From a virus: a DNA stretch of 64,000 bases. Every line of letters starts with the position of its first letter. Position 1 is the stretch's first letter. Under the pieces are notes generated by a model. It made no database searches and was not told the DNA's origin. It worked only from the letters and a program-made list of their open reading frames with translations. The stretch is from IMG/VR virus record IMGVR_UViG_3300027868_000008, one strand, 5' to 3'. The position numbers and the translations under genes are program-made. Below are positions 3,421-47,235 of the stretch, piece after piece.

Positions 3421-5558
3421 ATCGTCGGCAACGTGATCGTATGGTCAAACAAGTGTTGGATCCTTGGTTCATGTGTTACGAATAGCACCTGCAAGCCGCG
3501 CTCCGCTGATAATTCACGAAGGCGGGCGATGGCTGTTGGAAGGCAGCCCAGATTGTGCTCATCCAGGCCTGCCGTAGGTTCGTCCAGCACAAGGACGCCG
3601 ACCTGCCCAGCAAAAGTTGAGTTCACGGTGACCCGGAAGGCCATAGCCAGCACAATGCGTTCGCCCACAGATAGGCGCTTGTCTGGCTGCACCCTAACAC
3701 CGTCCAAGAAGCGCGCGATGAAGCCTAGACTCTCATCCATCTCCACACGGAACGGTGCCTCGAACGTCTCCAGTACGCTGTTCACCTCGTCGAGCATTGT
3801 CTCGATGTAGGTGTAGGACACCATACGTGGTGACTCATTACGATGGAATACCTGTCGTATGTTTTCCAGGTGTGCCACTGTTTCCCGTGTCCGCTCACCT
3901 TGCTGCGTAATGCGCTGGATGTCGTCCAGTTGCGCCTGCACAGTTGTTACGTTCGCCTCAGCAACAGCGTGTTGCTTTTGCAGCGCAAGCATGGCGGCAT
4001 AGCGCCGGCGTACCGTATCGCGCGCACGTTGTGCTGCCTCCGCGTTTGCCTTCGTATACGGTGGGCTCGTAACAAGCACTGCACGCGCCTCTTCCGTACG
4101 CGCTGCCAACTGTGTCAGTTCGCCCTCTGCCTCGGCTAGCTGTGTAGCATGCGTACTTGATTGTGTTTGCAGCTCAGTAAGTGCTGTGGCAAAACTGTCA
4201 CGTTCGTCAAGGCAGTTGCGCAACACTACACGATCAGTGTCTGGAAGTACCAGCTCAGCCAATGCGTTGCTACGTTGCTCGAGCTGTGCTTGCTCTGTCT
4301 CCCATGTATGCTGCTCTTGGCGGTATACCACCATATCCACCGCATATTGCTTACGTGCGTCGTCCCGTGTGCACAACGGGTCGCGTTCTTGCACGATAGT
4401 AGCTTGCTCGCTCAGCAGCGTTGTACGTCGTGCTTCTGCCTCTGCAAAATCTGGCATGCGCTGTCCGCACGTGGGGCAGTTATCGAGTGACTGCGACAGC
4501 GCACTGAGGGCCACGACCACGCGCGTATGCGCTTCCGTAAGCCAGTCCAATTGCTCCCGCTCGGCATCCGAGAGCGCCGCGCAGGGCTCCTGCGGTACAT
4601 CGACGCCGTTGGCCCATCGTTCGGTGTAGGCCTGTTGGTCCTGCGCAAACTGCTCACGCGTAGCCTTTGTTGCATCGTATGTGCGCCACTGCTGCAGCTT
4701 TCCTTCGGCATTACGTACATCGTCAGCCATAGCAGTTATCGCCAACGCGATGTCGCCGATGTCGGCCGTAAACCGACGAGCAGCTGCTCTTTGCGCAAGC
4801 ACATCATGCCTTTTGCTGCTTTCGGCTCCTGCTGCTTGCAAGACCGTCGCATTCGCCGCTGTGCGTTCGTCGTAGCCCCTGATAATGGCAAGCTGCTGAT
4901 CCATGTATTCGCTAGCGTCAACAACGTCGCGGTAGGCCAAGAGCTCGCCACTGAGGCGGGCGCCTGTCTCTGCGTGCTGCGCCAGTTGTTGACGCAGTTC
5001 ATCCGCATCCAACGTCGTGGTAGGCACCTCGATGTTGCTGAGGAACTCGCCCATTTGGCGCCAGACCTTCTCCGCCTGGTCGATACCAAACAGCGCAGCG
5101 AGTGCTGCAGCACGATCAGCAGGGCGCTGGTCGAACATCTCGTCGATCTTGCGCTGGCGAACGAAGACATAGTCTTGGATCTGGCGCTTAGTCGCGCCCA
5201 GGCGCCGCCACAGCTCCGCATTCATCTCATTGATGGATGATATCTCGGTGTCGCCGATGCATAAGAAATTGGAGCTGTTGTACTTGCCCACGGCCCGCCG
5301 TACGTAGATGATCGAACCGCCGTGCGATAGGTTTGTCTCCACGAACGACGGTGCATCGTCAGCAATGCCCTGGGTAATATCGTCAGCCTTGTTGCGATCG
5401 CCGCCGGCGTCGCCGGTAAGCAACAGCTGCAGGGCGCGCAGGAAATTTGTCTTTCCGCTGCCGTTCGGCCCCACGATGAGGTTGAGGCCTGGTTCCAGCG
5501 TGACATACAAGTCACGGTGCTGGCAAAAGTTCGTCAGTCGGACATCGCCGATGATCAT
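3417..5558 (-). CDS. SbcC/Rad50-like SMC-family ATPase (DNA double-strand break repair)
   Basis: N-terminal Walker A GPNGSGKT, long coiled coils, CPTCGQ zinc-hook-like motif, C-terminal VLVLDEPTAGLD Walker B/D-loop. Confidence 0.85.
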   Translation of the reverse strand: MIIGDVRLTNFCQHRDLYVTLEPGLNLIVGPNGSGKTNFLRALQLLLTGDAGGDRNKADDITQGIADDAPSFVETNLSHGGSIIYVRRAVGKYNSSNFLCIGDTEISSINEMNAELWRRLGATKRQIQDYVFVRQRKIDEMFDQRPADRAAALAALFGIDQAEKVWRQMGEFLSNIEVPTTTLDADELRQQLAQHAETGARLSGELLAYRDVVDASEYMDQQLAIIRGYDERTAANATVLQAAGAESSKRHDVLAQRAAARRFTADIGDIALAITAMADDVRNAEGKLQQWRTYDATKATREQFAQDQQAYTERWANGVDVPQEPCAALSDAEREQLDWLTEAHTRVVVALSALSQSLDNCPTCGQRMPDFAEAEARRTTLLSEQATIVQERDPLCTRDDARKQYAVDMVVYRQEQHTWETEQAQLEQRSNALAELVLPDTDRVVLRNCLDERDSFATALTELQTQSSTHATQLAEAEGELTQLAARTEEARAVLVTSPPYTKANAEAAQRARDTVRRRYAAMLALQKQHAVAEANVTTVQAQLDDIQRITQQGERTRETVAHLENIRQVFHRNESPRMVSYTYIETMLDEVNSVLETFEAPFRVEMDESLGFIARFLDGVRVQPDKRLSVGERIVLAMAFRVTVNSTFAGQVGVLVLDEPTAGLDEHNLGCLPTAIARLRELSAERGLQVLFVTHEPRIQHLFDHTITLPTI

Positions 5559-5809
5559 TTCGTGTCCTCGTAGTACACGCGTCGTGTTGCTAAATTACCG
5601 GCGCGTCGATGGCGTCGCCAGTCAGCCCTGGAGATGCGTCCGCGCGAGCCAGGGCGCAGTCGCGCAAATTGAAGGTCCGGCTTTGGGCACCTGATGGCCC
5701 AGCCACTAAGCAGGAATGTCGTAATGGCGTCGCTACGACTACGTCGTAGTGTCCATACCAGCGGCCTATCGCGCCAGACAACGATCCACCCAAGTGTGTT
5801 ATTCGTCAT
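5555..5809 (-). CDS. small basic hypothetical protein
   Basis: 84 aa; stop overlaps sbcC-like start as ATGA (translational coupling); composition weak. Confidence 0.3.
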   Translation of the reverse strand: MTNNTLGWIVVWRDRPLVWTLRRSRSDAITTFLLSGWAIRCPKPDLQFARLRPGSRGRISRADWRRHRRAGNLATRRVYYEDTK

Positions 5810-6146
5810 CGTCCGCGGCCTCGGTCTCGAGGTAGCCCAGCAGATCCCATGTCTGCGTCAGCGTGCAGTTATCGCCGGGAAGGACACTGGCAGCACGTAC
5901 GTCGCTGATTGCTTCGTAGTCTAGCAGCGTCCAGCCCTCCAGCACACTGAGTGCGGTGCTTTCTGTGATCCAGCGCTCCCACGCGTCATTTGGATCTGGG
6001 TCGTCTGGTAGGTCGTCATGGATGTCGCCACGTGCTACGACATCATACGCTTCAGCCAGCAGCTTGCTAAGCTCGCGCGACTCGTGGACAAGCGCCTTCG
6101 CTAGGCGTAGACACTTCGTGTGTGCGAGGTTGATTGCCTTGCTCAT
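5799..6146 (-). CDS. acidic hypothetical protein
   Basis: 115 aa ORF, D/E rich. Confidence 0.4.
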   Translation of the reverse strand: MSKAINLAHTKCLRLAKALVHESRELSKLLAEAYDVVARGDIHDDLPDDPDPNDAWERWITESTALSVLEGWTLLDYEAISDVRAASVLPGDNCTLTQTWDLLGYLETEAADDDE

Positions 6147-6370
6147 GATTTGCCCAGCCTTGCGGCTGCTTCCCTTTCTACGGCCTTCTTGGCCTTCTCC
6201 AGATCATCGAACGTGGTATTCGCCCAAGACGAATTCATACCCATGCCATAGTAGTACCAGGAACCCGAGCCTGTACGCTCGAGCGTCATTAGTACTTTGT
6301 TGCCCTTACACAGCAAAAGGCCTGTGCTTGGCGCGGCAGCAGAACGCCACGTAAAGCGATGCTTGGCCAT
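6143..6370 (-). CDS. hypothetical protein
   Basis: 75 aa ORF with 4-nt overlap to downstream gene. Confidence 0.35.
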   Translation of the reverse strand: MAKHRFTWRSAAAPSTGLLLCKGNKVLMTLERTGSGSWYYYGMGMNSSWANTTFDDLEKAKKAVEREAAARLGKS

Positions 6371-8496: not shown

Positions 8497-8850
8497 CTAG
8501 CAGCGCTGCGCACGCATTGCGCCAGCAATTGCCGTCGTGAGTTGTCGTTTCGCCGCTACGGCAAGTTTCTGTGCCTGTGCCGTACTGCCACAACGGACAG
8601 ATTTCGGTGTTCCGATGACTTGGCCGCGGCCGGAAGCAGGCCAGTAATCCGCAATATGCATAGCACCGAGATAGAATTGCCAGTGTCGAAATGCTTTTAC
8701 TGGAAGCAGCTCCGAGGCGGGATCGGTCTGAACGATATGAATCCGCTCAAACGCCAGCTCCGTCATCAGGGACGGCAGCTCCCGTTGAGCTGTCGCCAGA
8801 CGCTGGTGACGGAGTAGCTTCTTCGACGTCGACATTGTGTGGTTGGTCAT
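8497..8850 (-). CDS. hypothetical protein
   Basis: 117 aa ORF, overlaps hldE-like C-terminus. Confidence 0.3.
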   Translation of the reverse strand: MTNHTMSTSKKLLRHQRLATAQRELPSLMTELAFERIHIVQTDPASELLPVKAFRHWQFYLGAMHIADYWPASGRGQVIGTPKSVRCGSTAQAQKLAVAAKRQLTTAIAGAMRAQRC

Positions 8851-10300
8851 AGAGCACGGCTGACGTCGACGTATCGTGTTCGAGCGTCGTGATCAGCACC
8901 TTGCCTCCCCACCCTTCTACCGCCTCGCGCCCTTGTACGATCTTGTCAGCGTACTCTGGGCCTTTGACGAGAAGATCAGGCCGTAGTTGCCGGATCTCCG
9001 GGACCGGTGTATCGCCGTCGAACGGCAGCACCGCATCCACAGCAGGCTGCGCAGCCAGTGCTGCAGCCCGGATACTGTAGGGCTGTAGTGGCGTCCGCTT
9101 GATGCGGGTGGCAGATTTGTCGGTATTCAGCAGTACGCACAGGAAGTCGCACTGCGCACGTGCCTGCCTGAGCATCGAGATATGCCCAGGGTGGAGCACA
9201 TCAAAAACGCCGTTAGCGATACCAAATGTCTGGCCAGCAACAATCAGGGACCGGCGCAGCAGCGGTATTGATACGGGGTCTACTTGCTTCGCGGGTAGAT
9301 GCGCTCTTGAGGACGCGCAATGAATTGCGTGCAAACTGACTGGCTGCGCGCCGATCTGCTCAACAGCAAGCGCACCGGCAATGTTTGCAAACCGCATAAC
9401 CACTTCCGGCGGCATATCCGCAGCTACCCCATACGCTACGGCCGCTGCAACAGTGTCGCCCGCGCCACAGGTATCCAACTCATGTGCGGGTACAGCGGGG
9501 CAGTCAGTAGTAGTACCGTCAGAAGAGGCCCGGATTATGCCACCGCTTCCGAGCGTGACAAACAAGTGCGTGATGTTGTACTTAGCGCGCACCCATGCCG
9601 CAACTGCTTTCATAGTTGTGAGCGCTGAAGACGCTGGTGCAGCCGCCATGAGCTCCAAAGCATTTGGCGTTACAGCATAGGCGCCAGCGTAGTATTCCAT
9701 ATGCGACGGCGTTGGGTCGACAACCACGGGAATCTCGTGTTCCCGTGCAAACGTCATGATGAACTCTAACACAGCCGGCGTACACACGCCCTTGTTGTAG
9801 TCTGAGATCAGGATGACCAGCGGCGTGACTTCATCAAAACACTGACGCAGACGCATCAGCATGGGTTGCGACATGTCGCTGGTAGGCGGGCGCTCATGAT
9901 CATAGCGCGCCACCAACCGGTGATTCGCGTAGACACGGTGCTTGATTGGCGTTGTATACGCCGCTTCTACCGCAACATAGCGCGTAACACCCCGGCCCGC
10001 AGCCGGCTTGTCGAGGTACACGCGGCTGGCGTCGTCCTCGCCGACAACGCTAACAAAGGCTGTTGGCATTGCCAGGTAGGCTAGGCTATCCGCAGCGTTA
10101 GCCGCGCCGCCCGCGCCAACAAACTCGCGCTGGATCATCGTAACGGGTACAGGCGCCGTTTGGTCGAGCCCGCGGATGTTGCCGACGTGGTAGTGGTCCA
10201 GTATGACTGGTCCTACAACTACGGCACGCTGGTTCTTGCCAGGCTGTACGTCCGGCTGTGCCGCGTCTTCTGCTGGATTCGTCATTGAGTCGTCTTTCAC
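8747..10300 (-). CDS. hldE: bifunctional sugar kinase/nucleotidyltransferase, HldE (RfaE)-like: D-beta-D-heptose 7-phosphate kinase plus heptose 1-phosphate adenylyltransferase
   Basis: N-terminal pfkB carbohydrate kinase with DTCGAGDT signature; C-terminal cytidylyltransferase-like domain with GVFDVLHPGHISML (HxGH) motif. Confidence 0.75.
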   Translation of the reverse strand: MKDDSMTNPAEDAAQPDVQPGKNQRAVVVGPVILDHYHVGNIRGLDQTAPVPVTMIQREFVGAGGAANAADSLAYLAMPTAFVSVVGEDDASRVYLDKPAAGRGVTRYVAVEAAYTTPIKHRVYANHRLVARYDHERPPTSDMSQPMLMRLRQCFDEVTPLVILISDYNKGVCTPAVLEFIMTFAREHEIPVVVDPTPSHMEYYAGAYAVTPNALELMAAAPASSALTTMKAVAAWVRAKYNITHLFVTLGSGGIIRASSDGTTTDCPAVPAHELDTCGAGDTVAAAVAYGVAADMPPEVVMRFANIAGALAVEQIGAQPVSLHAIHCASSRAHLPAKQVDPVSIPLLRRSLIVAGQTFGIANGVFDVLHPGHISMLRQARAQCDFLCVLLNTDKSATRIKRTPLQPYSIRAAALAAQPAVDAVLPFDGDTPVPEIRQLRPDLLVKGPEYADKIVQGREAVEGWGGKVLITTLEHDTSTSAVLYDQPHNVDVEEATPSPASGDSSTGAAVPDDGAGV

Positions 10301-26210: not shown

Positions 26211-28091
26211 ATGGACCAGCTGCTCTTCGACGAACCGCATGCGCTAGAGCAAGCGCACCAGCAAATACGGCCACTTCTCGCGGCAAAAGACGCAGATGAC
26301 GTGTCTGCTGGCGACCGCATAGCCGGCCTCACCTCCATGATGGAGAGCGGGCGCATGGATACGCTGGCGCAGGCATTGCCGCTGCTGCTGAACCTCAAAG
26401 GTGAGCCATATTCGCTGATAAATCACTTCCCGTTCGAAGAGATTTTCAGGTTCCGCATGCCGTCATCGCTGACATACAAGACCGGACGCCAGGTCTCCAA
26501 GTCGACGTCACTAGCCGCGCACGGCATCGCCACGTCGATATCCATCCCAGATCTTACTACGCTGTATGTGATGCCGCTGTTCGAGCAAGTGCGCCGCTTC
26601 AGCTCAATGTTCGTGGCACCGTTCATTGACCAGAGCCCGGTACGGCATCTGTGGTCCGGAACCGACACGGTGAACAGCGTACTGCATCGTAGCTTCCGCA
26701 ACCGCTCGAAGATGCTCTTCTCCTTCGCCTTCCTCAATGCGGATCGTGTCCGCGGTATTTCCGCAGACAAGGTCGCCATTGATGAAGTCCAGGATATGAA
26801 TCGCGAGCACCTGCCGATCATCCGTGAGACGATGTCGGCCTCCAAGTGGGCGCTACGGCAGTTCACTGGCACACCCAAGACGCTGGACAATACGCTCGAG
26901 GCGCTGTGGACAGAGTCATCGCAGGCAGAGTGGTTTATCCCGTGTATGCACTGCACCACGCATGGCAGCCCAACATGGAACATCCCGACTATGGAGTTCC
27001 ATCTTGAGAAGATCATCGGACCGTACCACAGCGGGATCAGCGAGGAACACCCCGCGACGATCTGCTTCAAGTGCGGTAAGCCGATATCGCCGCGGATGGG
27101 GCGCTGGGTGCACCGCTACCCAAAACGCGTGTGGGGGTCAGCTGGCTATCACGTGCCGCAGATTATCATGCCGCTGCACTACGCGAAGCCAGACAAGTGG
27201 GCCGAGCTGCTGGCCAAGATGGCCGGTAAAGGTAACACGCCGCTGAATGTTTTCTATAACGAAGTGTTGGGCGAATCGTACGATACAGCTGCCAAGATCG
27301 TCACGCTGACGGAAATCGAAGCAGTGTCGAACCTAGGCCCCAACGACTTCTCAGTGGCCAAAGGCAAGTGTGGTAAGTACCAGATGCGCGTGCTGGGTGT
27401 AGACTGGGGTGGCGGTGGCGAGAAGAAGCTGAGCTTCACGACAGTGGCACTACTTGGCGTCAAACACGACGGCAAGATCGACGTGTTGTGGGGCAAGCGG
27501 CTACTCACGCCGCATGACCATCTACGCGAGGCGCGCGAGATCAAGCAGTACTGGGACGCCTTCCGCCCGACCATGATCTGCCATGACTACACGGGTGCCG
27601 GCTCACTTCGTGAGACGTTCCTGATTCAGTCCGGCGTACCTAGCCGCTGCGTAATGCCATGTATGTACGTACGCTCGGCCAAGCAGCAGCCGTGCTACCA
27701 TGTGGCTCCAACAGTAGATCATCCGCGCTCGCACTACCGCGTGGACAAGAGCCGCTCGTTATTGCTGACATGCGCAATGATCAAGTGTAAGCAGCTGCGG
27801 TTCTTTGACTCCGACTACAGCAGCCAGGAAGACCCCGGACTGATCCGTGACTTCCTGGCGCTCGTCGAAGACAAGGTGACCACGATGGCTGCTGGCGAGA
27901 TCTACCGTATTGACCGGCAGGCAGGCTTCACCGACGACTTTGCACAGGCTGTGAACCTGGGCTGCGTCGGTATCTGGTACCGCACCAAGAAATGGCCACG
28001 GCTGCACGAGATTGCTGCGATCTCTGATGAGCAGCTACGCGCATCTGTGCCGCTGTCTGACTCCGAATGGGACGACGAGCTCATTCAGTAG
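26211..28091 (+). CDS. terL: terminase large subunit (ATPase plus nuclease)
   Basis: Walker A-like GRQVSKST, Walker B VAIDEVQDM, C-terminal RNaseH-like nuclease with VLGVDWGGGG and DYTGAG. Confidence 0.8.
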   Translation: MDQLLFDEPHALEQAHQQIRPLLAAKDADDVSAGDRIAGLTSMMESGRMDTLAQALPLLLNLKGEPYSLINHFPFEEIFRFRMPSSLTYKTGRQVSKSTSLAAHGIATSISIPDLTTLYVMPLFEQVRRFSSMFVAPFIDQSPVRHLWSGTDTVNSVLHRSFRNRSKMLFSFAFLNADRVRGISADKVAIDEVQDMNREHLPIIRETMSASKWALRQFTGTPKTLDNTLEALWTESSQAEWFIPCMHCTTHGSPTWNIPTMEFHLEKIIGPYHSGISEEHPATICFKCGKPISPRMGRWVHRYPKRVWGSAGYHVPQIIMPLHYAKPDKWAELLAKMAGKGNTPLNVFYNEVLGESYDTAAKIVTLTEIEAVSNLGPNDFSVAKGKCGKYQMRVLGVDWGGGGEKKLSFTTVALLGVKHDGKIDVLWGKRLLTPHDHLREAREIKQYWDAFRPTMICHDYTGAGSLRETFLIQSGVPSRCVMPCMYVRSAKQQPCYHVAPTVDHPRSHYRVDKSRSLLLTCAMIKCKQLRFFDSDYSSQEDPGLIRDFLALVEDKVTTMAAGEIYRIDRQAGFTDDFAQAVNLGCVGIWYRTKKWPRLHEIAAISDEQLRASVPLSDSEWDDELIQ

Positions 28092-30355: not shown

Positions 30356-30417
30356 ACTTTGCTCCTTACCCCAAGCATAGCATGTTTAGGGTACGAAGAA
30401 AAGAGCAAGAAATTAAG

Positions 30418-30489
30418 CGAGCCATAGAGGAGTCGAACCCCTTCTTGCAGATCCGTAATCTGCCGTGCGATCCATCACACTCATAGCCC
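30418..30489 (-). tRNA. tRNA-Arg (anticodon ACG)
   Basis: Acceptor GGGCTAT/ATGGCTC (two G.U), anticodon loop TTACGGA, T-loop TTCGACT. Confidence 0.55.
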
Positions 30490-30491
30490 AC

Positions 30492-30563
30492 AACCCGGCC
30501 AAGACTTGAACTTGGAACCTCAGGGACCAAAACCCTGCGCTCTGCCAATTGAGCTACCGGGTA
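30492..30563 (-). tRNA. tRNA-Gln (anticodon TTG)
   Basis: D-arm GCTCAATTGGCAGAGC, anticodon stem CAGGG/CCCTG loop TTTTGGT, T-arm CCAAGTTCAAGTCTTGG. Confidence 0.7.
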
Positions 30564-40032: not shown

Positions 40033-40095
40033 CTCTGGAATCTACTCCTTTGGTGCACAATGAAAAACGGGCGACCAACACGGTCGCCCTGAAAG

Positions 40096-40178: not shown

Positions 40179-40466
40179 CTATTCTGGATGGTGCATGATA
40201 GTGTGGCAGTTCATGCATAGGATATCACACTTATCGACCTCAGCTTGAAGCATGGCCAGGCTGAAAGACCTGTTGGTCATCTGCTCGACGTTAGCCGTCT
40301 TCTCAGCAGGGACTCTGTGATGATAACACAGCGCCCGCCAGTCGTCAAAGCCACAGAGCTTACAGGCCTTGCCTTGTTTATGCTCACGTATGAACGTGCG
40401 ATTGCGCGCACAACAGCCGAGAGATTGCTGGTTTCTGGGGCAAAATCTACCCCTATCTACATGCAA
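40179..40466 (-). CDS. HNH endonuclease
   Basis: CKLCG...YHHRV...N...CDILCMNCH, canonical CxxC...HH...N...CxxCH. Confidence 0.75.
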   Translation of the reverse strand: MHVDRGRFCPRNQQSLGCCARNRTFIREHKQGKACKLCGFDDWRALCYHHRVPAEKTANVEQMTNRSFSLAMLQAEVDKCDILCMNCHTIMHHPE

Positions 40467-40795
40467 GAGCTATTGACAGCAGAACGGTGGGTCGCAACAC
40501 TTACGGGGTAAAACTGAATATCTGTGTCCCATGCGATCAATTTCTCATCTGCGAGTCGCACAAAGCAGGGGAGGCAGACGACGCGGTTGCGGTACTCGCT
40601 GGGCACAACCGCAGCCCATACGTCATCAGGCACGTCAAACCCAACAGGGTTTGGGTGATAGCAGAGCTTGCAGATTTCTCGTGACAACCCCCCGTAGGGT
40701 TGCCTAACACCTAGTTCCTGATCGAAGGAGGCTGACATGACGTACCGTCGAAAACGTGGAAGCGACACATGGCACTGGTGCAAGAATTGCTCCAA
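40457..40795 (-). CDS. putative zinc-binding hypothetical protein
   Basis: CKLCYH...CLPC; 10-nt overlap with HNH gene; start uncertain. Confidence 0.4.
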   Translation of the reverse strand: MEQFLHQCHVSLPRFRRYVMSASFDQELGVRQPYGGLSREICKLCYHPNPVGFDVPDDVWAAVVPSEYRNRVVCLPCFVRLADEKLIAWDTDIQFYPVSVATHRSAVNSSCM

Positions 40796-40923
40796 CTGGC
40801 CGACATCCGATTACGAAGGGAGTGCACGTGTACTTGCGAGGTACGTCTCTTTGTTTGCCTGGTAGTGCTTAGCGGCGTAGGCTTTCGGATCGCTGGCTGG
40901 CATGCGATACCTTGGTTAGAGTC

Positions 40924-40952
40924 ACATGCAGTGACTCTAACCTACCAGCAAC
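40924..40952. repeat. perfect palindrome GGTTAGAGTCAC-atgca-GTGACTCTAACC
   Basis: 12-bp arms, 5-nt loop, intergenic downstream of neuB-like stop. Confidence 0.45.
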
Positions 40953-40969
40953 GAACTTGCAACCCCACA

Positions 40970-41887
40970 TCATGTGCGCCGTAAGCGCGGGTCGAACGTG
41001 CTAGAAGTACCAAGATACTGTGTTCCGTACGCCTGGTCAACTAGAAACGGCTTTTCTGCGTCCGACATCCCGAAATCTGCTTCGGGAACATCCTTCGCCT
41101 CCAGCTCAACTATTGCCAGATCGTCACTGTGGACCGCGTCTGCCAGCGCCCTGAACTCCGCGGGCTCCAGGCTGCAATCGATGTGATGGACGAATGAGTG
41201 GCGGGACAGGCAGAAATGCCGCTCGACCATCTCAGCGCCCAGCTGTGCAGCCATGATTGATGACTTGATGCCCATCTCGTGCCCTGAGTAGCCAATACGG
41301 ATCCTATCTGACCCGAATAACCGCTTCAGCGTAGGGATGTTCTCCAGCCGAAGATAGAGGTCCGGGCACGGGTACACAGCGACACAGTGCAGGATCCAGA
41401 GCTTCTTGTGCTCCTCGAATATCGCGATCACCTGCTCGATCTCAGGCAGCGTGCAGCCAGCAACTGACAGCACGACCTCCCATGATACCGGCGTCTCTGC
41501 CGCAATCTGTCGCAGGACTTCTGGCTTATGCGCGTTCGTGGATGAGACCTTGATGCGCCGCCGTACTGAGTTTCCACGCAGGAATGCCATACTATCTGCA
41601 GTCTGCGCGGTAGCATACCACGGGATGTCCGCATAGCGGCACTCTGCGCTGAAGCGGTGCCAGTCACCATCATCGAGCTCGAACATGGTCCGATAGTCCC
41701 GATAGGTCTTCCCGAACGGGCTGGAATAGGGACTGTTCAGCTTTTCGGGGGTGTAGAACGACTTCACGTGCTTCTTCTGCATCTTGATGGTATCAGCGCC
41801 GGCCTGCTTGGCCGCTTTGACCATGCGGAGCAACAGCCCCATATGGCCCATGTGGTTTGTCGTAAACTCGGCTACGAGCTCAACCAT
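40970..41887 (-). CDS. neuB: N-acetylneuraminate (nonulosonic acid) synthase, NeuB/PseI/LegI family
   Basis: N-terminal VAEFTTNHMGHMGLLLRMVKAAKQAGADTIKMQK matches the NeuB TIM-barrel signature; 305 aa. Confidence 0.7.
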   Translation of the reverse strand: MVELVAEFTTNHMGHMGLLLRMVKAAKQAGADTIKMQKKHVKSFYTPEKLNSPYSSPFGKTYRDYRTMFELDDGDWHRFSAECRYADIPWYATAQTADSMAFLRGNSVRRRIKVSSTNAHKPEVLRQIAAETPVSWEVVLSVAGCTLPEIEQVIAIFEEHKKLWILHCVAVYPCPDLYLRLENIPTLKRLFGSDRIRIGYSGHEMGIKSSIMAAQLGAEMVERHFCLSRHSFVHHIDCSLEPAEFRALADAVHSDDLAIVELEAKDVPEADFGMSDAEKPFLVDQAYGTQYLGTSSTFDPRLRRT

Positions 41888-42066
41888 TGTCTGCCTCCCG
41901 TATCGGAACTACGTCACCGGCTGCAAGCAACGCAGCTGTATGTTGCTGTTCCGCCTTACGCTGTTTCTCGAGCTCTTTGATCCGCGCCTCTTTCTGGCGG
42001 ATGACTGCTTTGGCCTCTCGTACAGCTGCTGCCGTCTCCCGTTCCTGCTGGCCAAGATAGTAGGCA

Positions 42067-42723
42067 TTACCACCTCCCGTGTCTTGAGTACAGCGCCTCC
42101 GGCGTGAGCTCTTCCAGGTCTGCTCGGATCTTGTCTTCGATAACGGCCCGCGCTTCTGCGTGGATACAGATCTGTTCTGCCTTTGCATGCGGGATAACCA
42201 GTACGCCATCGTTATCTGCAAAGATGATGTCGTTAGGCTGTGCTCGGACCGTTGGACTGAGCCAAATCGGTTTTTGCCATGCACGAATTTGCCACCGACC
42301 GTACGCATCTACCGGCGTTACGCCCAAGCAATAGACGGGAAACTTGATCTGCCGGATCATGCGCGCATCGCGGGTATGGCCACGAATGACAGCACCAACA
42401 GCGCCAGCCTTACGTGCTAGCCTAGCCGAAATGTCGCCGTAGTGCGCAACGCTCAGGTCGTCACCGCCGTCGATCACCTGTACGCAGCCGGGCGTCATTT
42501 CCTGTAGCATCGTAAGTCGCACACTGTCGTCGAGTAGTTTATCGTCGGCTAGGTGCTGTCCCACACACGTAAACGCAGGGCCAACAAGCGGCCGCGGGGC
42601 GTGTCGCCCTAGCGGTTTGATAGTCGTACCCGGCGTGAAATTTCGTAGGTCCATGTCGAAGTACATCGTGTCATAGACCACGCCAGCATACAGCCGGCGC
42701 AGACGCTCAACTACTGTCTGCAC
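42067..42723 (-). CDS. RraA/MenG-like family protein (RNase E inhibitor RraA or class II oxo-acid aldolase fold)
   Basis: VIDGGDDLSVAHYGDISARLARKAGAVGAVIRGHTRD...FPVYCLGVTP family motifs. Confidence 0.6.
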   Translation of the reverse strand: MQTVVERLRRLYAGVVYDTMYFDMDLRNFTPGTTIKPLGRHAPRPLVGPAFTCVGQHLADDKLLDDSVRLTMLQEMTPGCVQVIDGGDDLSVAHYGDISARLARKAGAVGAVIRGHTRDARMIRQIKFPVYCLGVTPVDAYGRWQIRAWQKPIWLSPTVRAQPNDIIFADNDGVLVIPHAKAEQICIHAEARAVIEDKIRADLEELTPEALYSRHGRW

Positions 42724-43459
42724 GTGGGTCTCCTGGTTTCAGTGGAAACGCTGATAGCATTGGGTCAGCGGCAGCTGTAAACGCACCCTCGACACCGACG
42801 TCAAAGGCATCTGCATAGCGCTGGAGTAGCTCTGGATCGTCTTCTGTACGCAGACGGCGTACGAGATCCGGCATAGCACACCAGCACAGTTGGGTCGTAC
42901 ATGGCTGCCCAAGCCAACTGCCGTCAAGGATCTTGGCGAACAGCAGCTTCTCTTTCAGCATCATGTGCGGAAACCCAGCGTCAACATACGGGGTCCGCGC
43001 ATCGTAGTAGTGTGGTTGCTCGGGTACCGTCGAATCGAAGCCAAACAGTTTGAGTACGTCTGGCTTGAAGACCTTCATAGCCATAGCCACGGCAATGAAG
43101 CCTGTAGACGGACAAAGCTTGAGTCTGAAGGCTAGCCGCTTCCAGTACTCGTGCGTAAGCCACCGTATCGGCTGCATGTCAGCGAGCTTGTTGAACTCTC
43201 GCAGATTCCGCTTGCCGTTTACGGTGTTGTGCATTATCTGCGTCGGGCCGTGCGTGTACCAGTGCTCACAGTAGAGATCAGCAGGCCTGCTGTCCCACCC
43301 ATAAGGGTCACCAAACCAGGCGACCGCGTGGGTACGCTTACCCGCGTCCTCGGCAGCGTGCGCCCAAAAGGCCTTGATACGGACGACCTTGTCCGCATTG
43401 TCGATGCTCTTGCCCTTGCCGGCCGCAGATGGGCCGTTTGCTACAACAGAGACGATCAT
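42707..43459 (-). CDS. GT42/CstII-like nonulosonic acid (sialyl) transferase
   Basis: N-terminal VVANGPS (cf CstII IIAGNGPS); STGFIAVAMAMKVFKPDVLKLFGFD aligns with CstII TSGVYMCAVAIALGYKEIYLSGIDF; downstream His in FPHMM. Confidence 0.55.
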   Translation of the reverse strand: MIVSVVANGPSAAGKGKSIDNADKVVRIKAFWAHAAEDAGKRTHAVAWFGDPYGWDSRPADLYCEHWYTHGPTQIMHNTVNGKRNLREFNKLADMQPIRWLTHEYWKRLAFRLKLCPSTGFIAVAMAMKVFKPDVLKLFGFDSTVPEQPHYYDARTPYVDAGFPHMMLKEKLLFAKILDGSWLGQPCTTQLCWCAMPDLVRRLRTEDDPELLQRYADAFDVGVEGAFTAAADPMLSAFPLKPGDPRADSS

Positions 43460-43467
43460 AGTAGTAC

Positions 43468-44172
43468 CTAGTGCTTGGTTAGTGCATTCTGCCCGCGTGC
43501 GATTAGATCGGCAATGTCGAAGTCTTCTTCTGTGTTGATATCGATAGCCTCGAGGGCGTCGACGAAGATCATAGAGACGTTAGGCATCGGTGTGCGGCAG
43601 CGTGTGCGCATCAACGCCTCGCTGGTGACTACGTACAGCGCGGTGGTGTCCCAAACCGTCTCAGGTACAGTTTGGCTGTTGGGTAGGGGTTTCAAGTTGT
43701 AACACGGCTGGCAGATATCCTGGACGGGGAGGCCCCGACGATGCCAGCGGAGCAGGTGTGCTTTGCATACCAGGAATGCACCGTCATAGTCGTGATAAAC
43801 GACTTCCTTTATCGCCTTGCTGATCGTCTCCGGACGCACAAACGGACTGGTACAGAGGTACTGCACATAGATCCTTGCCGGTATACGTGACATGGTGTCG
43901 AGCAACAGATGGTTGCCGTCCGTGCTGTTTGTGTCCAGCTGCGACGACCGGCGTATGACGTGCGCGCACTCGTCTGTCTCTACGCTTGCGCGGATCTCGG
44001 GGCAGTCCGTATCGAGAAACACCTTGTCGATCTCGGGGACGCTCCGCAACTTGTTAAAGGCCCTGGCGGCCAATGGCGGACCCTGTCCGCCGAGTACACG
44101 CATGTTCTTTCCAGGCACGCGTGTACTGGTGCCCTTTGCCGGCACGACGCCGACGACCTTAAACTTCTTCAT
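43468..44172 (-). CDS. neuA: acylneuraminate cytidylyltransferase (CMP-nonulosonic acid synthetase), NeuA family
   Basis: Start at MKKFKVVGVVPAKGTSTRVPGKNM, matching CMP-NeuAc synthetase P-loop (VIPARGGSKRIPRKNI). Confidence 0.65.
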   Translation of the reverse strand: MKKFKVVGVVPAKGTSTRVPGKNMRVLGGQGPPLAARAFNKLRSVPEIDKVFLDTDCPEIRASVETDECAHVIRRSSQLDTNSTDGNHLLLDTMSRIPARIYVQYLCTSPFVRPETISKAIKEVVYHDYDGAFLVCKAHLLRWHRRGLPVQDICQPCYNLKPLPNSQTVPETVWDTTALYVVTSEALMRTRCRTPMPNVSMIFVDALEAIDINTEEDFDIADLIARGQNALTKH

Positions 44173-44440
44173 CTGGCTCCTTCTCCGCGGCGTCGGGGAC
44201 ACTTTGTAGGTGGTTGCGTGTTGCCGACAGGATCTGGCGGACATGTGATACCTGTTCAACGGTGACGCGATTGGCTGTCTCAAGCTTAGCGATATGCACC
44301 AGCTCTGCGACATCGCTACGTGCGGCGCAGATGAAACTAGCGATATCGCGGTCTACCGGAAAGCGTGGCAGTACCTTTTCCAGCGCATACAGCCGTTTAT
44401 GCGCCGCCCTACACAGCTTCAGCATATTACGCGCATTCAT
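44159..44440 (-). CDS. hypothetical protein
   Basis: Start at MNARNMLKL. Confidence 0.35.
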   Translation of the reverse strand: MNARNMLKLCRAAHKRLYALEKVLPRFPVDRDIASFICAARSDVAELVHIAKLETANRVTVEQVSHVRQILSATRNHLQSVPDAAEKEPDEEV

Positions 44441-47235
44441 CGCGAACCCCCAATCACCCGTAGGCGCTGTTGCTGATGGGCCTGGCATAGGTCAACCTGC
44501 CGGCTCCACCATGATTCGATAATGAACCACCCTGTCTCGCCATTATACTGGCATTCGCAGTCCAGCGCATTGGCAGCCCGCAGTGCGTCGGTGATACGCC
44601 CCGGGTCCGGAAGTGGCAGATAACGCTGCGTGGTAGCACGTGCGAGCATCTCGCGGCCGATGAAGACCCCAGGCGCACGCGTACCGTCATCGACTTTGAC
44701 GATGGCGGCTGTGCCCGCATCGGCGTCATAGCCCGCTTGCTCCGTACGTAGAACCCCGTCCATTACAAAGCGACATACCAGCGAAACGAAGCGCACCGCC
44801 TGGCTGCTTGGATCGTCGGTCTCGTCGTCAATGAGCGTATGTGCGCTCTGGATGAAGTCACTATCTCCGTACGGCGCCATCATGTGCGCCATGTCATCCA
44901 ATACTCGGTGGCCTTCGCTACCGGCGTCAGACTCCAGCAGCAGCTTGCGTTTGGCCACGCGTTCAAGCCACATCGGTATGACGTGCCTACCGTACAGTTG
45001 GACCTCTGGTCCTGGCTCAACTGGGTCAGTGCAGCGGACAAACCGCCACGGATCCAGCATGCCGGCGAGATCTGCCTGATACTTGTCAAGATACGTCATC
45101 ACGTTGCGCAGGAAGTCGCCGTTAAGCCAGTTACCGAGGATCGTCCTGCTGCATCCGCGTGTAAGTGTCAGGTACAGCGGCCACCGGTGCCGTGTTGTGA
45201 TTTGTGTGAGCTGGTTAGCGAGGCGCACTCCGTAGCGCCCGCCTGTGCTCATGCCAGAGAGCTCGCAGCAACCAGCAGCCGTGGCGGCGGCGTGCCCAAC
45301 CATCAACGCGCCGTGACCCACTACCCCGATACCGCGTACTGGTTGGCCCGTAGCTGGCGCAATGATGTTGGCCCCCAGACAGCCCATAGCCGCCCAGAAG
45401 ATGCGATTGGACGGCGTATCGCGCGTGATCATTGCAATGTCTGCTGGTGGGATACTGGGCGGCGTCAGGTTGCGGCCGGGCGTCCACTCGTCAACGGTAT
45501 GGGCTGCGGCTTCGCTGACCGAGCCGCCCAGGTGCACAGCGAACTGCGGCAGCAGGAACTGCGAGTCTCGCGGCTTCCAGCCAAAACGGCCGTCCTCATT
45601 GATGACCGTTGGTGTATAGAAAGCACGAGCAACGTCCATGAGGTGAACAGTCCAGCCCCGGCGAACAGTCACAAGCTTCTTCGCCTTGGCCAACAGCTTC
45701 TTCTTGAGCCACTCACCCGGGTTCTTGTCGACCTTCGACATGGGCTCCGTGAACTCGATTTGCTCCTCTTGGTAGAGTATGCGTCCGTGATAGTAGGCTT
45801 CAGCGTTTTCGTCGTCATCGCGGCAGATCACCTTCTCGACGCGGATTACAGCGTCTGAGATGCACTCGCTGGTCTTCTGCAGGAACCAGCCCGCCTCGGA
45901 CTCAGTGATTCGCTTCCCGCGGACTATGACAGAACTGAGCAGCCGTACGTCGTGCCGATGCCGGTCGAGGAGCTCCCGTACTTGCGGTGCGCAAGTTGCC
46001 TTGAAGTACTGCATGCGCCCAGGCGGCATGTTCATCTGCTGCAGCAGCGTCACTGCGGCAGCCTCTGGCAGTACGCGTAGCTGCGTCTCCAGGACCTCTG
46101 TCCAGTGCCGTGCGCGTTTCTGGATGTGCCGCAGCCAGAGCTGCATCGGCTGCTGTTGCAAGTCCAGCAAATGCCTGCTGATGTAGATCAGGCCGTCAGC
46201 GCGCGCAGCCATGTCAAACAGATCCGGCGACAGCTTTGCTCCCCAGAAGATGAATTTCTTGTCGGGACGTGCGCCCCAGATATCGTGGGATACGAGGCGC
46301 CACTCATGGGCGCGGCGTCTGACGCGTGCTGGGTACGTTCCGACAATCGGCAGCGGCAGCTCTGAGTCACGCATGAATCGTGCTTGCATCTTCAACGCCT
46401 GCAGCGGATCGTTCATCACGAAGATCGTGTTCTGGAACCACTCAGTGTGTGCTGTTGGCGCATCCATCACGTCGTACATGCAGCAGCCAATTTCTGTTGA
46501 GGGGTCTGCTGCTGCCCGTGTGTTCGTGTCTACGACCTTGAAGGCGTAGTCCTTGTCAGGCTTGCCCTTCCGCCCCAAGAACAAGACGCCGGCACATCGC
46601 CCCGGGAGATCGTGAAAAGGCACAGAAAGCACGTCGTGCCAAGCCTTACCCGGAAACAGCGTGCCATGTGGAGTGGTCGCGTAGCTCTGTTTCTCCGTGA
46701 CGGTGGGCGCAAATGTGCGCAGCGCCCGCAACCGCGGCACGCCACCCATAAATCGGCCCATCCGCGACTTCCAGTACTGCCGGTGCTGATCTTTCGGGAG
46801 CCCCAGCTGATGCAGGAGCCCGGCGACCTGCAGACCGCTCCCTAGCCGCTTCCGGCCCGCTATCGCCAGCAGGCGGCACCTCTCCTGCATTCCAGGGCAC
46901 TCGTAGGCGTAAGCCTCGATGGCGTCTAGGGTAAGCGTTGTCCCGGAGAACGGCGCCCCATGGCCCGTTAGCTTGTGAATCGCCTGTGGGAGGTCGCAAT
47001 CCCAGGTAGCAGCCGCCAGCTCGATCATATCGCCCGCAGAGCGGCAGTCAGGACAGTAGTGCCAGTTTCCGCCGAATTTGGTATCATCATAGATGTGAAG
47101 GCGGTGTCCGTGGCACAATGGGCACTGCACCATCAGCGGCATGGAGCCGGTGGTGGCCTTAACCCCAAGCAATGGTAGTACTTGGTGCCAACCGACATAT
47201 GCGTTGAGTGAACGTCGTTGTTGTCGTTGTCGCAT
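44437..47235 (-). CDS. large 932-aa protein with N-terminal DnaG-type CHC2 zinc finger (putative primase or primase-associated)
   Basis: QCPLCHGHRLHIYDD...WHYCPDCRSAGDMIEL matches zf-CHC2; rest unrecognised; no Walker A seen. Confidence 0.5.
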   Translation of the reverse strand: MRQRQQRRSLNAYVGWHQVLPLLGVKATTGSMPLMVQCPLCHGHRLHIYDDTKFGGNWHYCPDCRSAGDMIELAAATWDCDLPQAIHKLTGHGAPFSGTTLTLDAIEAYAYECPGMQERCRLLAIAGRKRLGSGLQVAGLLHQLGLPKDQHRQYWKSRMGRFMGGVPRLRALRTFAPTVTEKQSYATTPHGTLFPGKAWHDVLSVPFHDLPGRCAGVLFLGRKGKPDKDYAFKVVDTNTRAAADPSTEIGCCMYDVMDAPTAHTEWFQNTIFVMNDPLQALKMQARFMRDSELPLPIVGTYPARVRRRAHEWRLVSHDIWGARPDKKFIFWGAKLSPDLFDMAARADGLIYISRHLLDLQQQPMQLWLRHIQKRARHWTEVLETQLRVLPEAAAVTLLQQMNMPPGRMQYFKATCAPQVRELLDRHRHDVRLLSSVIVRGKRITESEAGWFLQKTSECISDAVIRVEKVICRDDDENAEAYYHGRILYQEEQIEFTEPMSKVDKNPGEWLKKKLLAKAKKLVTVRRGWTVHLMDVARAFYTPTVINEDGRFGWKPRDSQFLLPQFAVHLGGSVSEAAAHTVDEWTPGRNLTPPSIPPADIAMITRDTPSNRIFWAAMGCLGANIIAPATGQPVRGIGVVGHGALMVGHAAATAAGCCELSGMSTGGRYGVRLANQLTQITTRHRWPLYLTLTRGCSRTILGNWLNGDFLRNVMTYLDKYQADLAGMLDPWRFVRCTDPVEPGPEVQLYGRHVIPMWLERVAKRKLLLESDAGSEGHRVLDDMAHMMAPYGDSDFIQSAHTLIDDETDDPSSQAVRFVSLVCRFVMDGVLRTEQAGYDADAGTAAIVKVDDGTRAPGVFIGREMLARATTQRYLPLPDPGRITDALRAANALDCECQYNGETGWFIIESWWSRQVDLCQAHQQQRLRVIGGSR

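Follow-up and report, generated by a model that had tools for sequence, protein, structure and literature searches.

A phage operon predicted to make, activate, and transfer a sialic acid-like sugar, with an RraA-like aldolase, a SAF-less NeuB-family synthase, and a miniature GT29-like transferase

The stretch of DNA analyzed here (the window) comprises 64,000 nucleotides of a virus, IMG/VR record IMGVR_UViG_3300027868_000008. Between positions 40970 and 44440, its minus strand consists of six closely spaced open reading frames (ORFs) of 93, 234, 250, 218, 52, and 305 amino acids. Four of these encode enzymes: a CMP-sugar synthetase, a miniature glycosyltransferase with a predicted sialyltransferase fold, an RraA-like protein, and a NeuB-family synthase. 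We consider it likely that this operon is the phage's own pathway to a CMP-activated 3-deoxy-2-ulosonic acid, together with the transferase that spends it. The product is most likely acidic and sialic acid-like, and made by an uncharacterized route. A preliminary description of the DNA had proposed that the locus is a make-activate-transfer module for a sugar of this kind. The genes that it placed on the minus strand and the peptide strings that it quoted are all present, and domain, fold, and gene-neighborhood evidence supports the proposed module. From upstream to downstream, the locus contains the following features.

44159-44440, minus strand: 93-residue ORF bridging the upstream 932-residue gene and the sugar genes (gene calls L001-L004, junction sequences)
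43468-44172, minus strand: putative CMP-ulosonic acid synthetase of the CTP_transf_3 family, 234 residues (Pfam PF02348)
42707-43459, minus strand: miniature GT29-like (sialyltransferase-fold) glycosyltransferase, 250 residues (Pfam PF00777)
42067-42723, minus strand: RraA-like homolog of class II pyruvate aldolases and β-keto-acid decarboxylases, 218 residues, GTG start (Pfam PF03737)
41909-42067, minus strand: small basic ORF of 52 residues between the RraA-like and NeuB genes, coding status uncertain
40970-41887, minus strand: putative NeuB-family PEP-dependent ulosonic acid synthase of a SAF-less clade, 305 residues (Pfam PF03102)
40914-40942, minus strand: hairpin with a perfect 12-bp stem and a 5-nucleotide loop, 28 nucleotides past the NeuB stop codon (sequence and ViennaRNA)

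The stop codon of the upstream 932-residue gene overlaps the ATG of the 93-residue ORF (ATGA), which suggests that translation of the sugar genes is coupled to that of a replication-type gene. The stop codon of the 93-residue ORF, in turn, falls within the start of the synthetase gene. We placed the synthetase start at 44172 and not at 44313, because the ribosome-binding site GAAGGAG precedes the ATG at 44172 and independent gene calls on other assemblies agree with this position. The end of the transferase gene and the start of the RraA-like gene overlap by 17 nucleotides, the RraA stop codon overlaps the ATG of the 52-residue ORF (TAATG), and both the RraA-like gene and the NeuB gene have a ribosome-binding site (GGGAGG for NeuB). 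Gene calls on four independent assemblies include the 52-residue ORF, which has no homolog in related loci. An alternative reading frame at this position ends in ATGGTTGA and overlaps the NeuB start, which makes the translated frame ambiguous. The 93-residue ORF has neither a Pfam match nor a homolog in related loci.

A scan for terminator-like sites found none on the minus strand within the operon, its sole minus-strand site being a U-tract terminator-like sequence at 40069-40089, after the tRNA-Met gene. The 76-nucleotide region around the hairpin at 40914-40942 folds at -26.9 kcal/mol (ViennaRNA), with no U-tract after the stem; the hairpin probably forms the 3′ end of the transcript or stabilizes it. 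Overall, the four enzyme genes are predicted to form one translationally coupled operon that continues from the upstream 932-residue primase-like gene. Contigs that were assembled independently from ENA, JGI, and Logan samples (L001-L004) show the identical gene order, with phage genes flanking both sides. The operon is therefore not an assembly artifact, and we rejected an assembly chimera or bacterial contamination on the same grounds.

The synthase matches the NeuB profile PF03102 with 154.3 bits against a cut-off of 22.1 (E = 4.9e-45), with residues 22-254 covering positions 1-231 of the 241-position profile. This supports the NeuB-like synthase that the preliminary description had proposed. 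The best solved relative is PseI from C. jejuni (PDB code 8h2c, E = 2.2e-22). The scores stay below the equivalog cut-offs of both NeuB (TIGR03569, 140.5 versus 399.65) and PseI (TIGR03586, 114.2 versus 340.25). Pfam detects no C-terminal SAF (antifreeze-like) domain in the synthase, whose chain ends 46 residues beyond the barrel; one solved relative (PDB code 6ncs) is comparably short, with a chain of 290 residues. Database relatives at E ≤ 1e-10 form 359 clusters. The best 120 of these 359 are 48-56% identical to the synthase, measure 294-350 residues (median 303.5), and contain PF03102 only.

We aligned the synthase with NeuB from N. meningitidis (PDB code 1xuu). Residues E25, K53, Q55, K129, S132, H215, and H236 of the meningococcal enzyme correspond to E7, K35, Q37, K113, S116, H203, and H224 of the phage enzyme, and these seven PEP (phosphoenolpyruvate) and metal positions are invariant in the 120 clade members. 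Three further residues of the meningococcal enzyme are replaced in the clade: E134 by asparagine (119 of 120 members), N184 by alanine (120 of 120), and D247 by histidine (120 of 120). Of the residues named here, the seven invariant ones reportedly serve PEP and metal binding and the three replaced ones belong to the sugar site (Gunawan et al. 2005). R314 of the meningococcal SAF domain reportedly contacts N-acetylmannosamine (ManNAc) at the sugar site of the partner subunit. The synthase is thus predicted to keep the PEP and metal chemistry, in combination with a consistently altered sugar pocket. With three sugar-site replacements in a clade that has no SAF domain, the product is probably not N-acetylneuraminic acid (Neu5Ac), pseudaminic acid, or legionaminic acid. 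The naming of a sialic, legionaminic, or pseudaminic acid in the preliminary description is therefore unjustified, given the scores below both equivalog cut-offs, the missing SAF domain, and the altered sugar site.

The protein encoded at 43468-44172 belongs to the CTP_transf_3 family (PF02348, 64 bits versus a cut-off of 22.6, E = 2.3e-17). It carries the N-terminal motif VVPAKGTSTRVPGKNM, and direct reading finds the P-loop-like motif PA(R/K)xxSxxxPxKN in the form VPAKGTSTRVPGKNM. Its best solved relative is the murine CMP-Neu5Ac synthetase (PDB code 1qwj, E = 1.6e-8). The equivalog models score below their cut-offs here as well (PseF TIGR03584, 55.3 versus 205.7; KdsB models, 28-40 versus 193-281).

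The transferase matches the Pfam family Glyco_transf_29 (PF00777) with 34.2 bits against a cut-off of 23 (E = 2.4e-8), and its homolog P0002 reaches 29.3 bits. All four sialyl motifs can be assigned: motif L (VVANGPSAAGKGKSIDNADKVVRIK), motif S (PSTGFIAVAMAMKVFKPDVLKLFGFD), motif III (HYYD, residues 150-153), and motif VS (H165-x4-E170). A word-indexed homology search retrieved 2 proteins only, whereas an exhaustive search gathered 99 cluster representatives, nearly all of ∼200 residues. The conserved blocks of the family alignment are VVGNGPSA, ID..D.VVR, PSTGF.A..MA....L.L.GFD, and H....EK, with H165, E170, and K171 conserved at ≥90%.

An AlphaFold2 model calculated from the family alignment (pLDDT 88.4, pTM 0.84) has the predicted fold of a GT-A variant 2 sialyltransferase. 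Residues 200-250 form an extension that is peculiar to the phage and is modeled at low confidence. When the family profile is compared with PDB sequences, the matches are ST3Gal-I (E = 3.9e-8), ST8SiaIII (8.6e-7), ST6Gal1 (7.6e-5), and ST6GalNAc2 (4.3e-4), whereas CstII reaches only E = 0.16 in the same search. The profile aligns motifs L and S with those of ST3Gal-I, and motifs L, S, III (YHYYD), and VS (H-x4-E) with those of ST8SiaIII. Used as a single-sequence query, the transferase finds nothing significant among PDB sequences, and its identity to mammalian GT29 enzymes is 18-19%. It has no match to the Pfam family CST-I, which represents the GT42 enzymes CstI and CstII. Judged by these profile comparisons, the transferase is GT29-like rather than GT42/CstII-like; as both families have the same fold, the earlier assignment to a GT42/CstII-like enzyme was nonetheless close.

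The transferase has no type II membrane anchor, and its chain begins at the first β-strand. The family alignment contains no cysteine at the motif L and motif S positions, and hence no candidate for an L-S disulfide. The donor sugar is probably not Neu5Ac, as suggested by the co-encoded synthase. Distant phage proteins annotated as GT29 are present in BFVD (TM ∼0.5) and appear not yet to have been characterized.

The RraA-like protein matches PF03737 with 85.1 bits against a cut-off of 24.5 (E = 7.4e-24), and its best solved relative is a yeast YER010c-type protein (PDB code 5x15, E = 7.6e-16). It stays below the cut-offs of all RraA and HMG/CHA aldolase equivalog models, among them those for RraA (NF006875, 55 versus 136) and for the CHA aldolase (NF006731, 54.8 versus 179). 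The protein features D97-X20-R118-D119, and (D/E)-X20-R-D is kept in 12 of 12 aligned orthologs. This metal-binding and catalytic motif reportedly sets catalytically active members of the superfamily, both aldolases and decarboxylases, apart from E. coli RraA, which does not have it (Mazurkewich et al. 2014). Every open-chain 3-deoxy-2-ulosonic acid contains the 4-hydroxy-2-oxo acid unit on which RraA-type aldolases work. It would therefore be chemically sensible for the RraA-like enzyme to make, trim, or 4-epimerize the sugar skeleton.

The RraA-like subfamily is small, with 34 clusters at E ≤ 1e-20. For at least 8 of the 34, the longest contig is equal in size to that of a NeuB-clade cluster, which suggests that the RraA-like and NeuB genes lie on the same contig. 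The database searches turned up no fusions of RraA with NeuB. Bacterial operons with an RraA-like gene, NeuB, CTP_transf_3, and a His_Phos_1 phosphatase are found on a 183-kb contig of a metagenome-assembled genome (MAG) and on a 170-kb contig, with the RraA-like gene directly upstream of NeuB. The window proteins are 50% (RraA-like), 52-54% (NeuB), and 33-35% (synthetase) identical to their bacterial operon counterparts. On a 65,779-bp contig (JGI 3300050046), the order RraA-NeuB-His_Phos_1-CTP_transf_3 directly follows flgA-flgL, fliW, csrA, and a flagellin fragment, and is succeeded by a TylF methyltransferase, a Capsule_synth-like protein, and a 1970-residue multi-glycosyltransferase. This operon is a candidate for a new bacterial flagellin or surface sugar pathway.

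In a variant of the bacterial operon, a short-chain dehydrogenase/reductase (SDR) takes the place of the RraA-like gene, and in 3 of 4 cases a protein of 322-328 residues with no known function is present. The 328-residue and 607-residue proteins of the bacterial operons were ruled out as relatives of the phage transferase (hhalign probability <2%); the former gives only a sub-threshold hint to the polysialyltransferase family PF07388. In place of NeuC-, PseB/C-, or LegB/C-like genes, none of which they contain, the examined bacterial operons of the NeuB clade have a phosphatase together with an RraA-like or SDR gene. The preliminary description had called the RraA-like gene embedded between the synthase and the transferase. 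Going by its conserved place beside NeuB in bacteria and in unrelated phages, it is a member of the pathway and not an insertion.

To follow the transferase through other genomes, we ran a hand-made degenerate DNA pattern for GxGPSA-x6-ID-x2-D-x-VVR on genomes and metagenomes. It matched 1 contig among 185,579 prokaryotic genomes and 42 metagenome contigs. The single prokaryotic match is a 4.7-kb MAG fragment that carries genes for a B12-radical SAM enzyme and an RraA-like protein as well. A family-alignment scan of IMG/VR yielded four contigs; IMG/VR scans with the single transferase or NeuB protein found nothing. On contigs with sufficiently long flanks, the GT29-like gene lies beside genes for TerL, portal, or prohead protease. 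The module adjoins a terminase or portal gene in five loci (L008, L009, L010, L011, and L017) and is located between both in L008. The transferase family is thus essentially confined to phage contigs.

The GT29-like, RraA, NeuB, and CMP synthetase genes occur together in the phage loci L008, L017, and L041, with TerL or portal genes as neighbors. Among the loci of ≥5 kb with a GT29-like gene, 9 of 12 have a CTP_transf_3 gene next to it, and the synthetases of L033 and L042 display the KdsB-type motif VIPARYxSTRLPGKP. This linkage, with some of the synthetases being KdsB-like, suggests that the transferase family handles CMP-ulosonic acids in general. Four loci contain the miniature GT29 gene in two copies, which flank a CTP_transf_3 gene in L024 (418-2395), L031 (96-2256), and L033 (2107-4150, with the KdsB-type synthetase in between) and are directly adjacent in L026 (3723-4960).

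Several related loci carry additional genes. A B12-binding radical SAM gene (467-512 residues) is found beside the GT29-like gene in seven loci (L012, L017, L027, L033, L037, L041, and L044), mostly phage-like contigs, and in 6 of the 7 it sits between the GT29-like and RraA-like genes. Three of these genes have the following coordinates.

L012, 1087-2490: B12-radical SAM gene
L017, 3572-5029: B12-radical SAM gene
L041, 2283-3776: B12-radical SAM gene

Other frequent neighbors are a 261-residue SPASM radical SAM protein (16 loci) and a 256-residue protein of no known function (19 loci). The radical SAM partners suggest a further modification of the sugar in those phages, e.g. C-methylation. 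An HAD phosphatase, a sulfotransferase, a GT31-like protein, and a Maf-like protein also occur among the added genes. The sulfotransferase-like gene of L033 and the GT31-like galactosyltransferase of L041 represent eukaryote-type glycan enzymes on phage contigs. In L010 (same contig as L053), the miniature GT29 gene is directly followed by a gene (4227-6311) for a 694-residue protein with an MptE-like/Maf-like domain below the Pfam cut-off, and an SU10-type portal gene comes next. As flagellin receives its nonulosonic acids from Maf proteins, this neighbor hints at protein glycosylation near structural genes.

We searched the window for homologs of these partners (B12-radical SAM, SPASM, 256-residue, HAD, sulfotransferase-like, and Maf-like) and of the His_Phos_1, SDR, and 328- and 607-residue proteins of the bacterial operons, and found none. 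Pfam scans, which covered nearly all window ORFs of at least ∼95 residues in a greedy ORF call, likewise detected no B12-radical SAM, SPASM, HAD, Maf-like, sulfotransferase-like, or GT31-type domain. As further partner genes were not found in the window, its module represents a minimal version.

The remainder of the window is that of a phage. A gpA-type large terminase is encoded at 26211-28091, and Pfam also identifies an NAD-dependent DNA ligase, an SbcC-like ATPase, and a helicase, besides ORFs with endonuclease VII (one ORF), Clp_N, and DUF7873 domains. The terminase is only 26-31% identical to terminases of 150-190-kb myoviruses, which points to a large phage without a cultured relative. 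ARAGORN locates 16 tRNA genes on the minus strand between 29412 and 40168, including four consecutive tRNA-Leu genes. One call (30417-30507), which carries the four-base anticodon gatg and runs into tRNA-Gln (30491-30563), may be an ARAGORN artifact or a frameshift-suppressor-like tRNA.

The sugar operon is separated from the tRNA-Met gene by two overlapping minus-strand ORFs, an HNH endonuclease gene (40179-40466; PHROG 2255, E = 5.6e-20) and a cysteine-rich ORF of 112 residues (40457-40795). With its position at the boundary of the module, the HNH gene could indicate where the operon recombined or was inserted. On the upstream side, the 932-residue protein (44437-47235, minus strand) contains no Pfam domain and has a weak match to a PHROG primase that is limited to its N-terminal zinc-finger region (E = 4.4e-4). 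At a distance of ∼30 kb from the module, the phage possesses a second sugar-nucleotide gene (8747-10300, minus strand). The encoded 517-residue protein is a fusion of a PfkB sugar kinase domain and a cytidylyltransferase-like domain, the architecture of bifunctional HldE/RfaE (heptose 7-phosphate kinase/heptose 1-phosphate adenylyltransferase). The neighbors of this HldE-like gene have no sugar-related Pfam matches.

None of the four enzymes has a match in PHROGs. We also searched 50,697 records of deposited phage genomes. Among these, neither the operon DNA nor the transferase and CMP synthetase proteins found a match; the NeuB protein gave three weak matches (23-26% identity) and the RraA-like protein two, both to Acinetobacter phage records.

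How, then, might the four enzymes act together? In a first step, the SAF-less NeuB-family synthase would condense PEP with an aldose, probably a common host sugar that is possibly phosphorylated. Secondly, the RraA-like class II aldolase would act on the 4-hydroxy-2-oxo-acid skeleton or its precursor, or would supply the reaction partner. Thirdly, a phosphatase, which in the window phage would be that of the host, would take off a terminal phosphate. The CTP_transf_3 enzyme would then turn the free acid into its CMP ester. Finally, the soluble miniature GT29-like transferase would move the sugar from CMP to a cytoplasmic acceptor, with H165 of motif VS serving as the base. The families and folds of the four proteins, their conserved catalytic motifs, the operon structure, the orthology to the bacterial operon, and the repeated linkage of the GT29-like family to CMP-sugar synthetases in phages, on which this scheme builds, are directly apparent; we infer from them the chemistry of the RraA step, the sugar, the participation of a host phosphatase, and the acceptor.

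The nature of the precursor deserves a closer look. Within the scanned window ORFs, Pfam detects no sugar-precursor genes apart from the isolated HldE-like gene, and none that are NeuC-, PseB/C-, or LegB/C-like, which confirms the preliminary description on this point. It had concluded that the precursor must come from elsewhere; a common metabolite is more likely. Every examined bacterial operon contains a phosphatase and none contains NeuC-, Pse-, or Leg-type genes, which favors a phosphorylated common precursor, by analogy with the Kdn and Kdo routes. If the aldose is a common host sugar, precursor enzymes of the NeuC, Pse, and Leg type would not be needed.

Several observations weigh against a phage-encoded ulosonic acid pathway of this kind. 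The window contains no homolog of a His_Phos_1 or HAD phosphatase, so that the phage pathway would be incomplete on its own if the intermediate is phosphorylated. The Pfam GT29 match of the transferase spans only the C-terminal third of the model (residues 103-177 aligned to profile positions 187-267 of 272). Literature searches found no published pathway that pairs RraA with NeuB. The operon here follows a replication-type gene and not structural genes, which weakens the case for virion decoration in comparison with the relatives at terminase and portal genes. Enzyme activity, sugar, and glycoconjugate are, moreover, predictions from sequence.

As acceptor, we tentatively favor virion proteins, because the module is located between terminase and portal elsewhere, because of the Maf-like neighbor in L010, and because the enzyme is soluble. 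Host envelope or flagellar glycans follow as a somewhat less probable choice, and a different acceptor altogether is less probable still. The host surface as a target is the alternative that survives best. Here, the same chemistry would serve to remodel lipopolysaccharide, capsule, or flagellin, either to block superinfection or to alter recognition. This remains plausible because the operon is coupled to a primase-like gene of early/middle type and because the orthologous bacterial pathway resides in a flagellar and surface-glycan cluster; in addition, KdsA/KdsB genes of a cyanophage were read as "cell wall synthesis and modification" (PMC12801897). However, bacterial genomes hardly ever contain a member of the transferase family, and other phages carry the transferase between terminase and portal, once beside a Maf-like protein and a portal gene. 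Furthermore, host-surface conversion is typical of temperate phages, and the Pfam scans, in which other lysogeny functions were not searched for, show no integrase domain. Taken together, we regard the remodeling of the host surface as possible but doubtful.

A classical sialylation pathway is considerably less probable. In this case, Neu5Ac, legionaminic acid, or pseudaminic acid would be made from a host-supplied hexosamine precursor, and the RraA-like gene would be an unrelated passenger. The clear NeuB domain, the relationship of the synthase to PseI, the proximity of the synthetase to CMP-Neu5Ac synthetase and the PseF model, and the GT29 fold, which is that of true sialyltransferases, are all compatible with such a pathway. 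Yet the synthase falls well short of both the NeuB and the PseI equivalog cut-off, and without a SAF domain it has no equivalent of R314, which reportedly contacts ManNAc in the meningococcal enzyme. The equivalents of E134, N184, and D247 are asparagine, alanine, and histidine across the clade, the examined bacterial operons contain no NeuC-, PseB/C-, or LegB/C-like genes, and the synteny of the RraA-like gene is conserved.

It is very unlikely that the RraA-like protein is instead a regulator of host RNase E that protects phage transcripts and has no relation to the sugar genes. Source annotations do name its homologs "regulator of RNase E activity RraA," and phages are generally known to interfere with host RNA turnover. 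The protein reaches only 55 bits against the 136-bit cut-off for RraA, however, and it keeps the D-X20-R-D motif, which E. coli RraA reportedly does not have. In the biosynthetic operons of bacteria, and likewise in other phages, its orthologs immediately precede NeuB. Least credible of all is a transfer of the acidic sugar to nucleic acid (phage DNA or tRNAs) as an anti-restriction or translational modification. The co-transcribed primase-like gene, the adjacent array of 16 tRNAs, and the cytoplasmic, soluble enzyme are circumstantial. Against this reading, the Pfam scans of the window reveal no domain of a thymidylate-synthase-like hydroxymethylase, a DNA kinase, or any known DNA glycosyltransferase. 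Glycans or proteins are the known targets of GT29, GT42, and Maf enzymes, and the modules of the relatives are situated among structural genes.

The ulosonic acid pathway that we propose for the phage shares its logic with bacterial nonulosonic acid clusters (NeuB/NeuA with Cst-II or Lst; PseI/PseF or LegI/LegF with Maf), in which a synthase is likewise followed by a CTP_transf_3 enzyme and a transferase of the GT29, GT42, or Maf fold. In contrast to these clusters, the phage module does not include the precursor enzymes (NeuC, PseB/C/H/G, or LegB/C/H/G). Its synthase has no SAF domain and an altered sugar pocket, an RraA-like aldolase belongs to its core, and the transferase is GT29-like and not of the GT42, GT52, GT80, or Maf type. 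A second comparison is offered by the Kdn and Neu5Ac-9-phosphate route of animals and Bacteroides, in which a synthase that uses a hexose 6-phosphate is followed by a dedicated phosphatase and a CMP synthetase. Similar to this route, the orthologous bacterial operons always contain a His_Phos_1 phosphatase, and some phage relatives contain an HAD phosphatase. Differences are the use of His_Phos_1 instead of HAD KdsC/NANP, the missing phosphatase in the window phage, and the additional RraA-like step.

For phages, glycosylation of the virion has reportedly been found in mycobacteriophages (Freeman et al. 2023, cited in PMC12801897). In these phages, glycosyltransferases encoded next to structural genes modify proteins of the capsid and tail while still in the cytoplasm. 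The relatives of the module that adjoin terminase or portal (L008, L009, L010, L011, and L017) resemble this arrangement. The mycobacteriophage system differs from the module in that it draws on host nucleotide sugars and unrelated glycosyltransferase families and is not known to involve a ulosonic acid or sugar biosynthesis by the phage.

Viral synthesis and CMP activation of a ulosonic acid have precedents in the giant virus Cafeteria roenbergensis virus (CroV), which encodes a Kdo pathway (PMC9614988), and in the cyanophage S-SCSM2R, which carries KdsA/KdsB genes (PMC12801897). Some of the GT29-like relatives are paired with KdsB-like synthetases as well (L033 and L042). Whereas CroV and S-SCSM2R feature KdsA-family synthases and no assigned dedicated transferase, the operon described here combines a NeuB-family synthase with a transferase. 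A count published in 2013 registered orthologs of neuB and neuA in a few phage genomes (PMC3877843). Our literature searches found no description of a pathway with an RraA-like protein and a SAF-less NeuB, none of a GT29 system in phages, and none of a phage operon in which sugar synthesis and activation are combined with a GT29-like transferase.

GT29 enzymes are also known from eukaryotic viruses (PMC9614988). The phage transferase has its fold and the sialyl motifs L, S, III, and VS in common with eukaryotic and viral GT29 enzymes, e.g. the α-2,3-sialyltransferase of myxoma virus. With 200-250 residues, the cytoplasmic phage family is about two-thirds the size of crystallized mammalian GT29 chains (272-318 residues). 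Bacterial GT29-like sequences without a membrane anchor and an L-S cysteine pair have been described (Petit et al. 2018, PMC5811610), and the phage transferase resembles them in both respects.

A bolder proposal, which we put forward as speculation, is that this phage and scattered unrelated phages coat their own particles with an undescribed acidic ulosonic sugar, the product of an RraA-dependent, SAF-less NeuB route that is uncharacterized in bacteria as well. The proteins of ∼200 residues would then represent the minimal GT29 fold and a viral reservoir of the eukaryotic sialylation family. Because the pathway consists of four genes and four small proteins, heterologous expression can test the hypothesis directly.

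If the proposed pathway holds, a ulosonic acid route that comprises an RraA-like aldolase, a SAF-less NeuB, a phosphatase, and a CMP synthetase would be widespread in environmental bacteria, and given its one occurrence in a flagellar cluster, its product may be a new sugar of flagellin or the cell surface. The transferases would constitute a compact, soluble sialyltransferase-fold family of 200-250 residues, attractive for glycoengineering and as a guide to how small the catalytic core of GT29 can be and how the family arose. Self-glycosylation of phages, so far described for mycobacteriophages with host sugars, would extend to an acidic sugar that the phage itself makes, activates, and transfers, with a bearing on phage-host recognition, adsorption, and the evasion of immunity or grazers.

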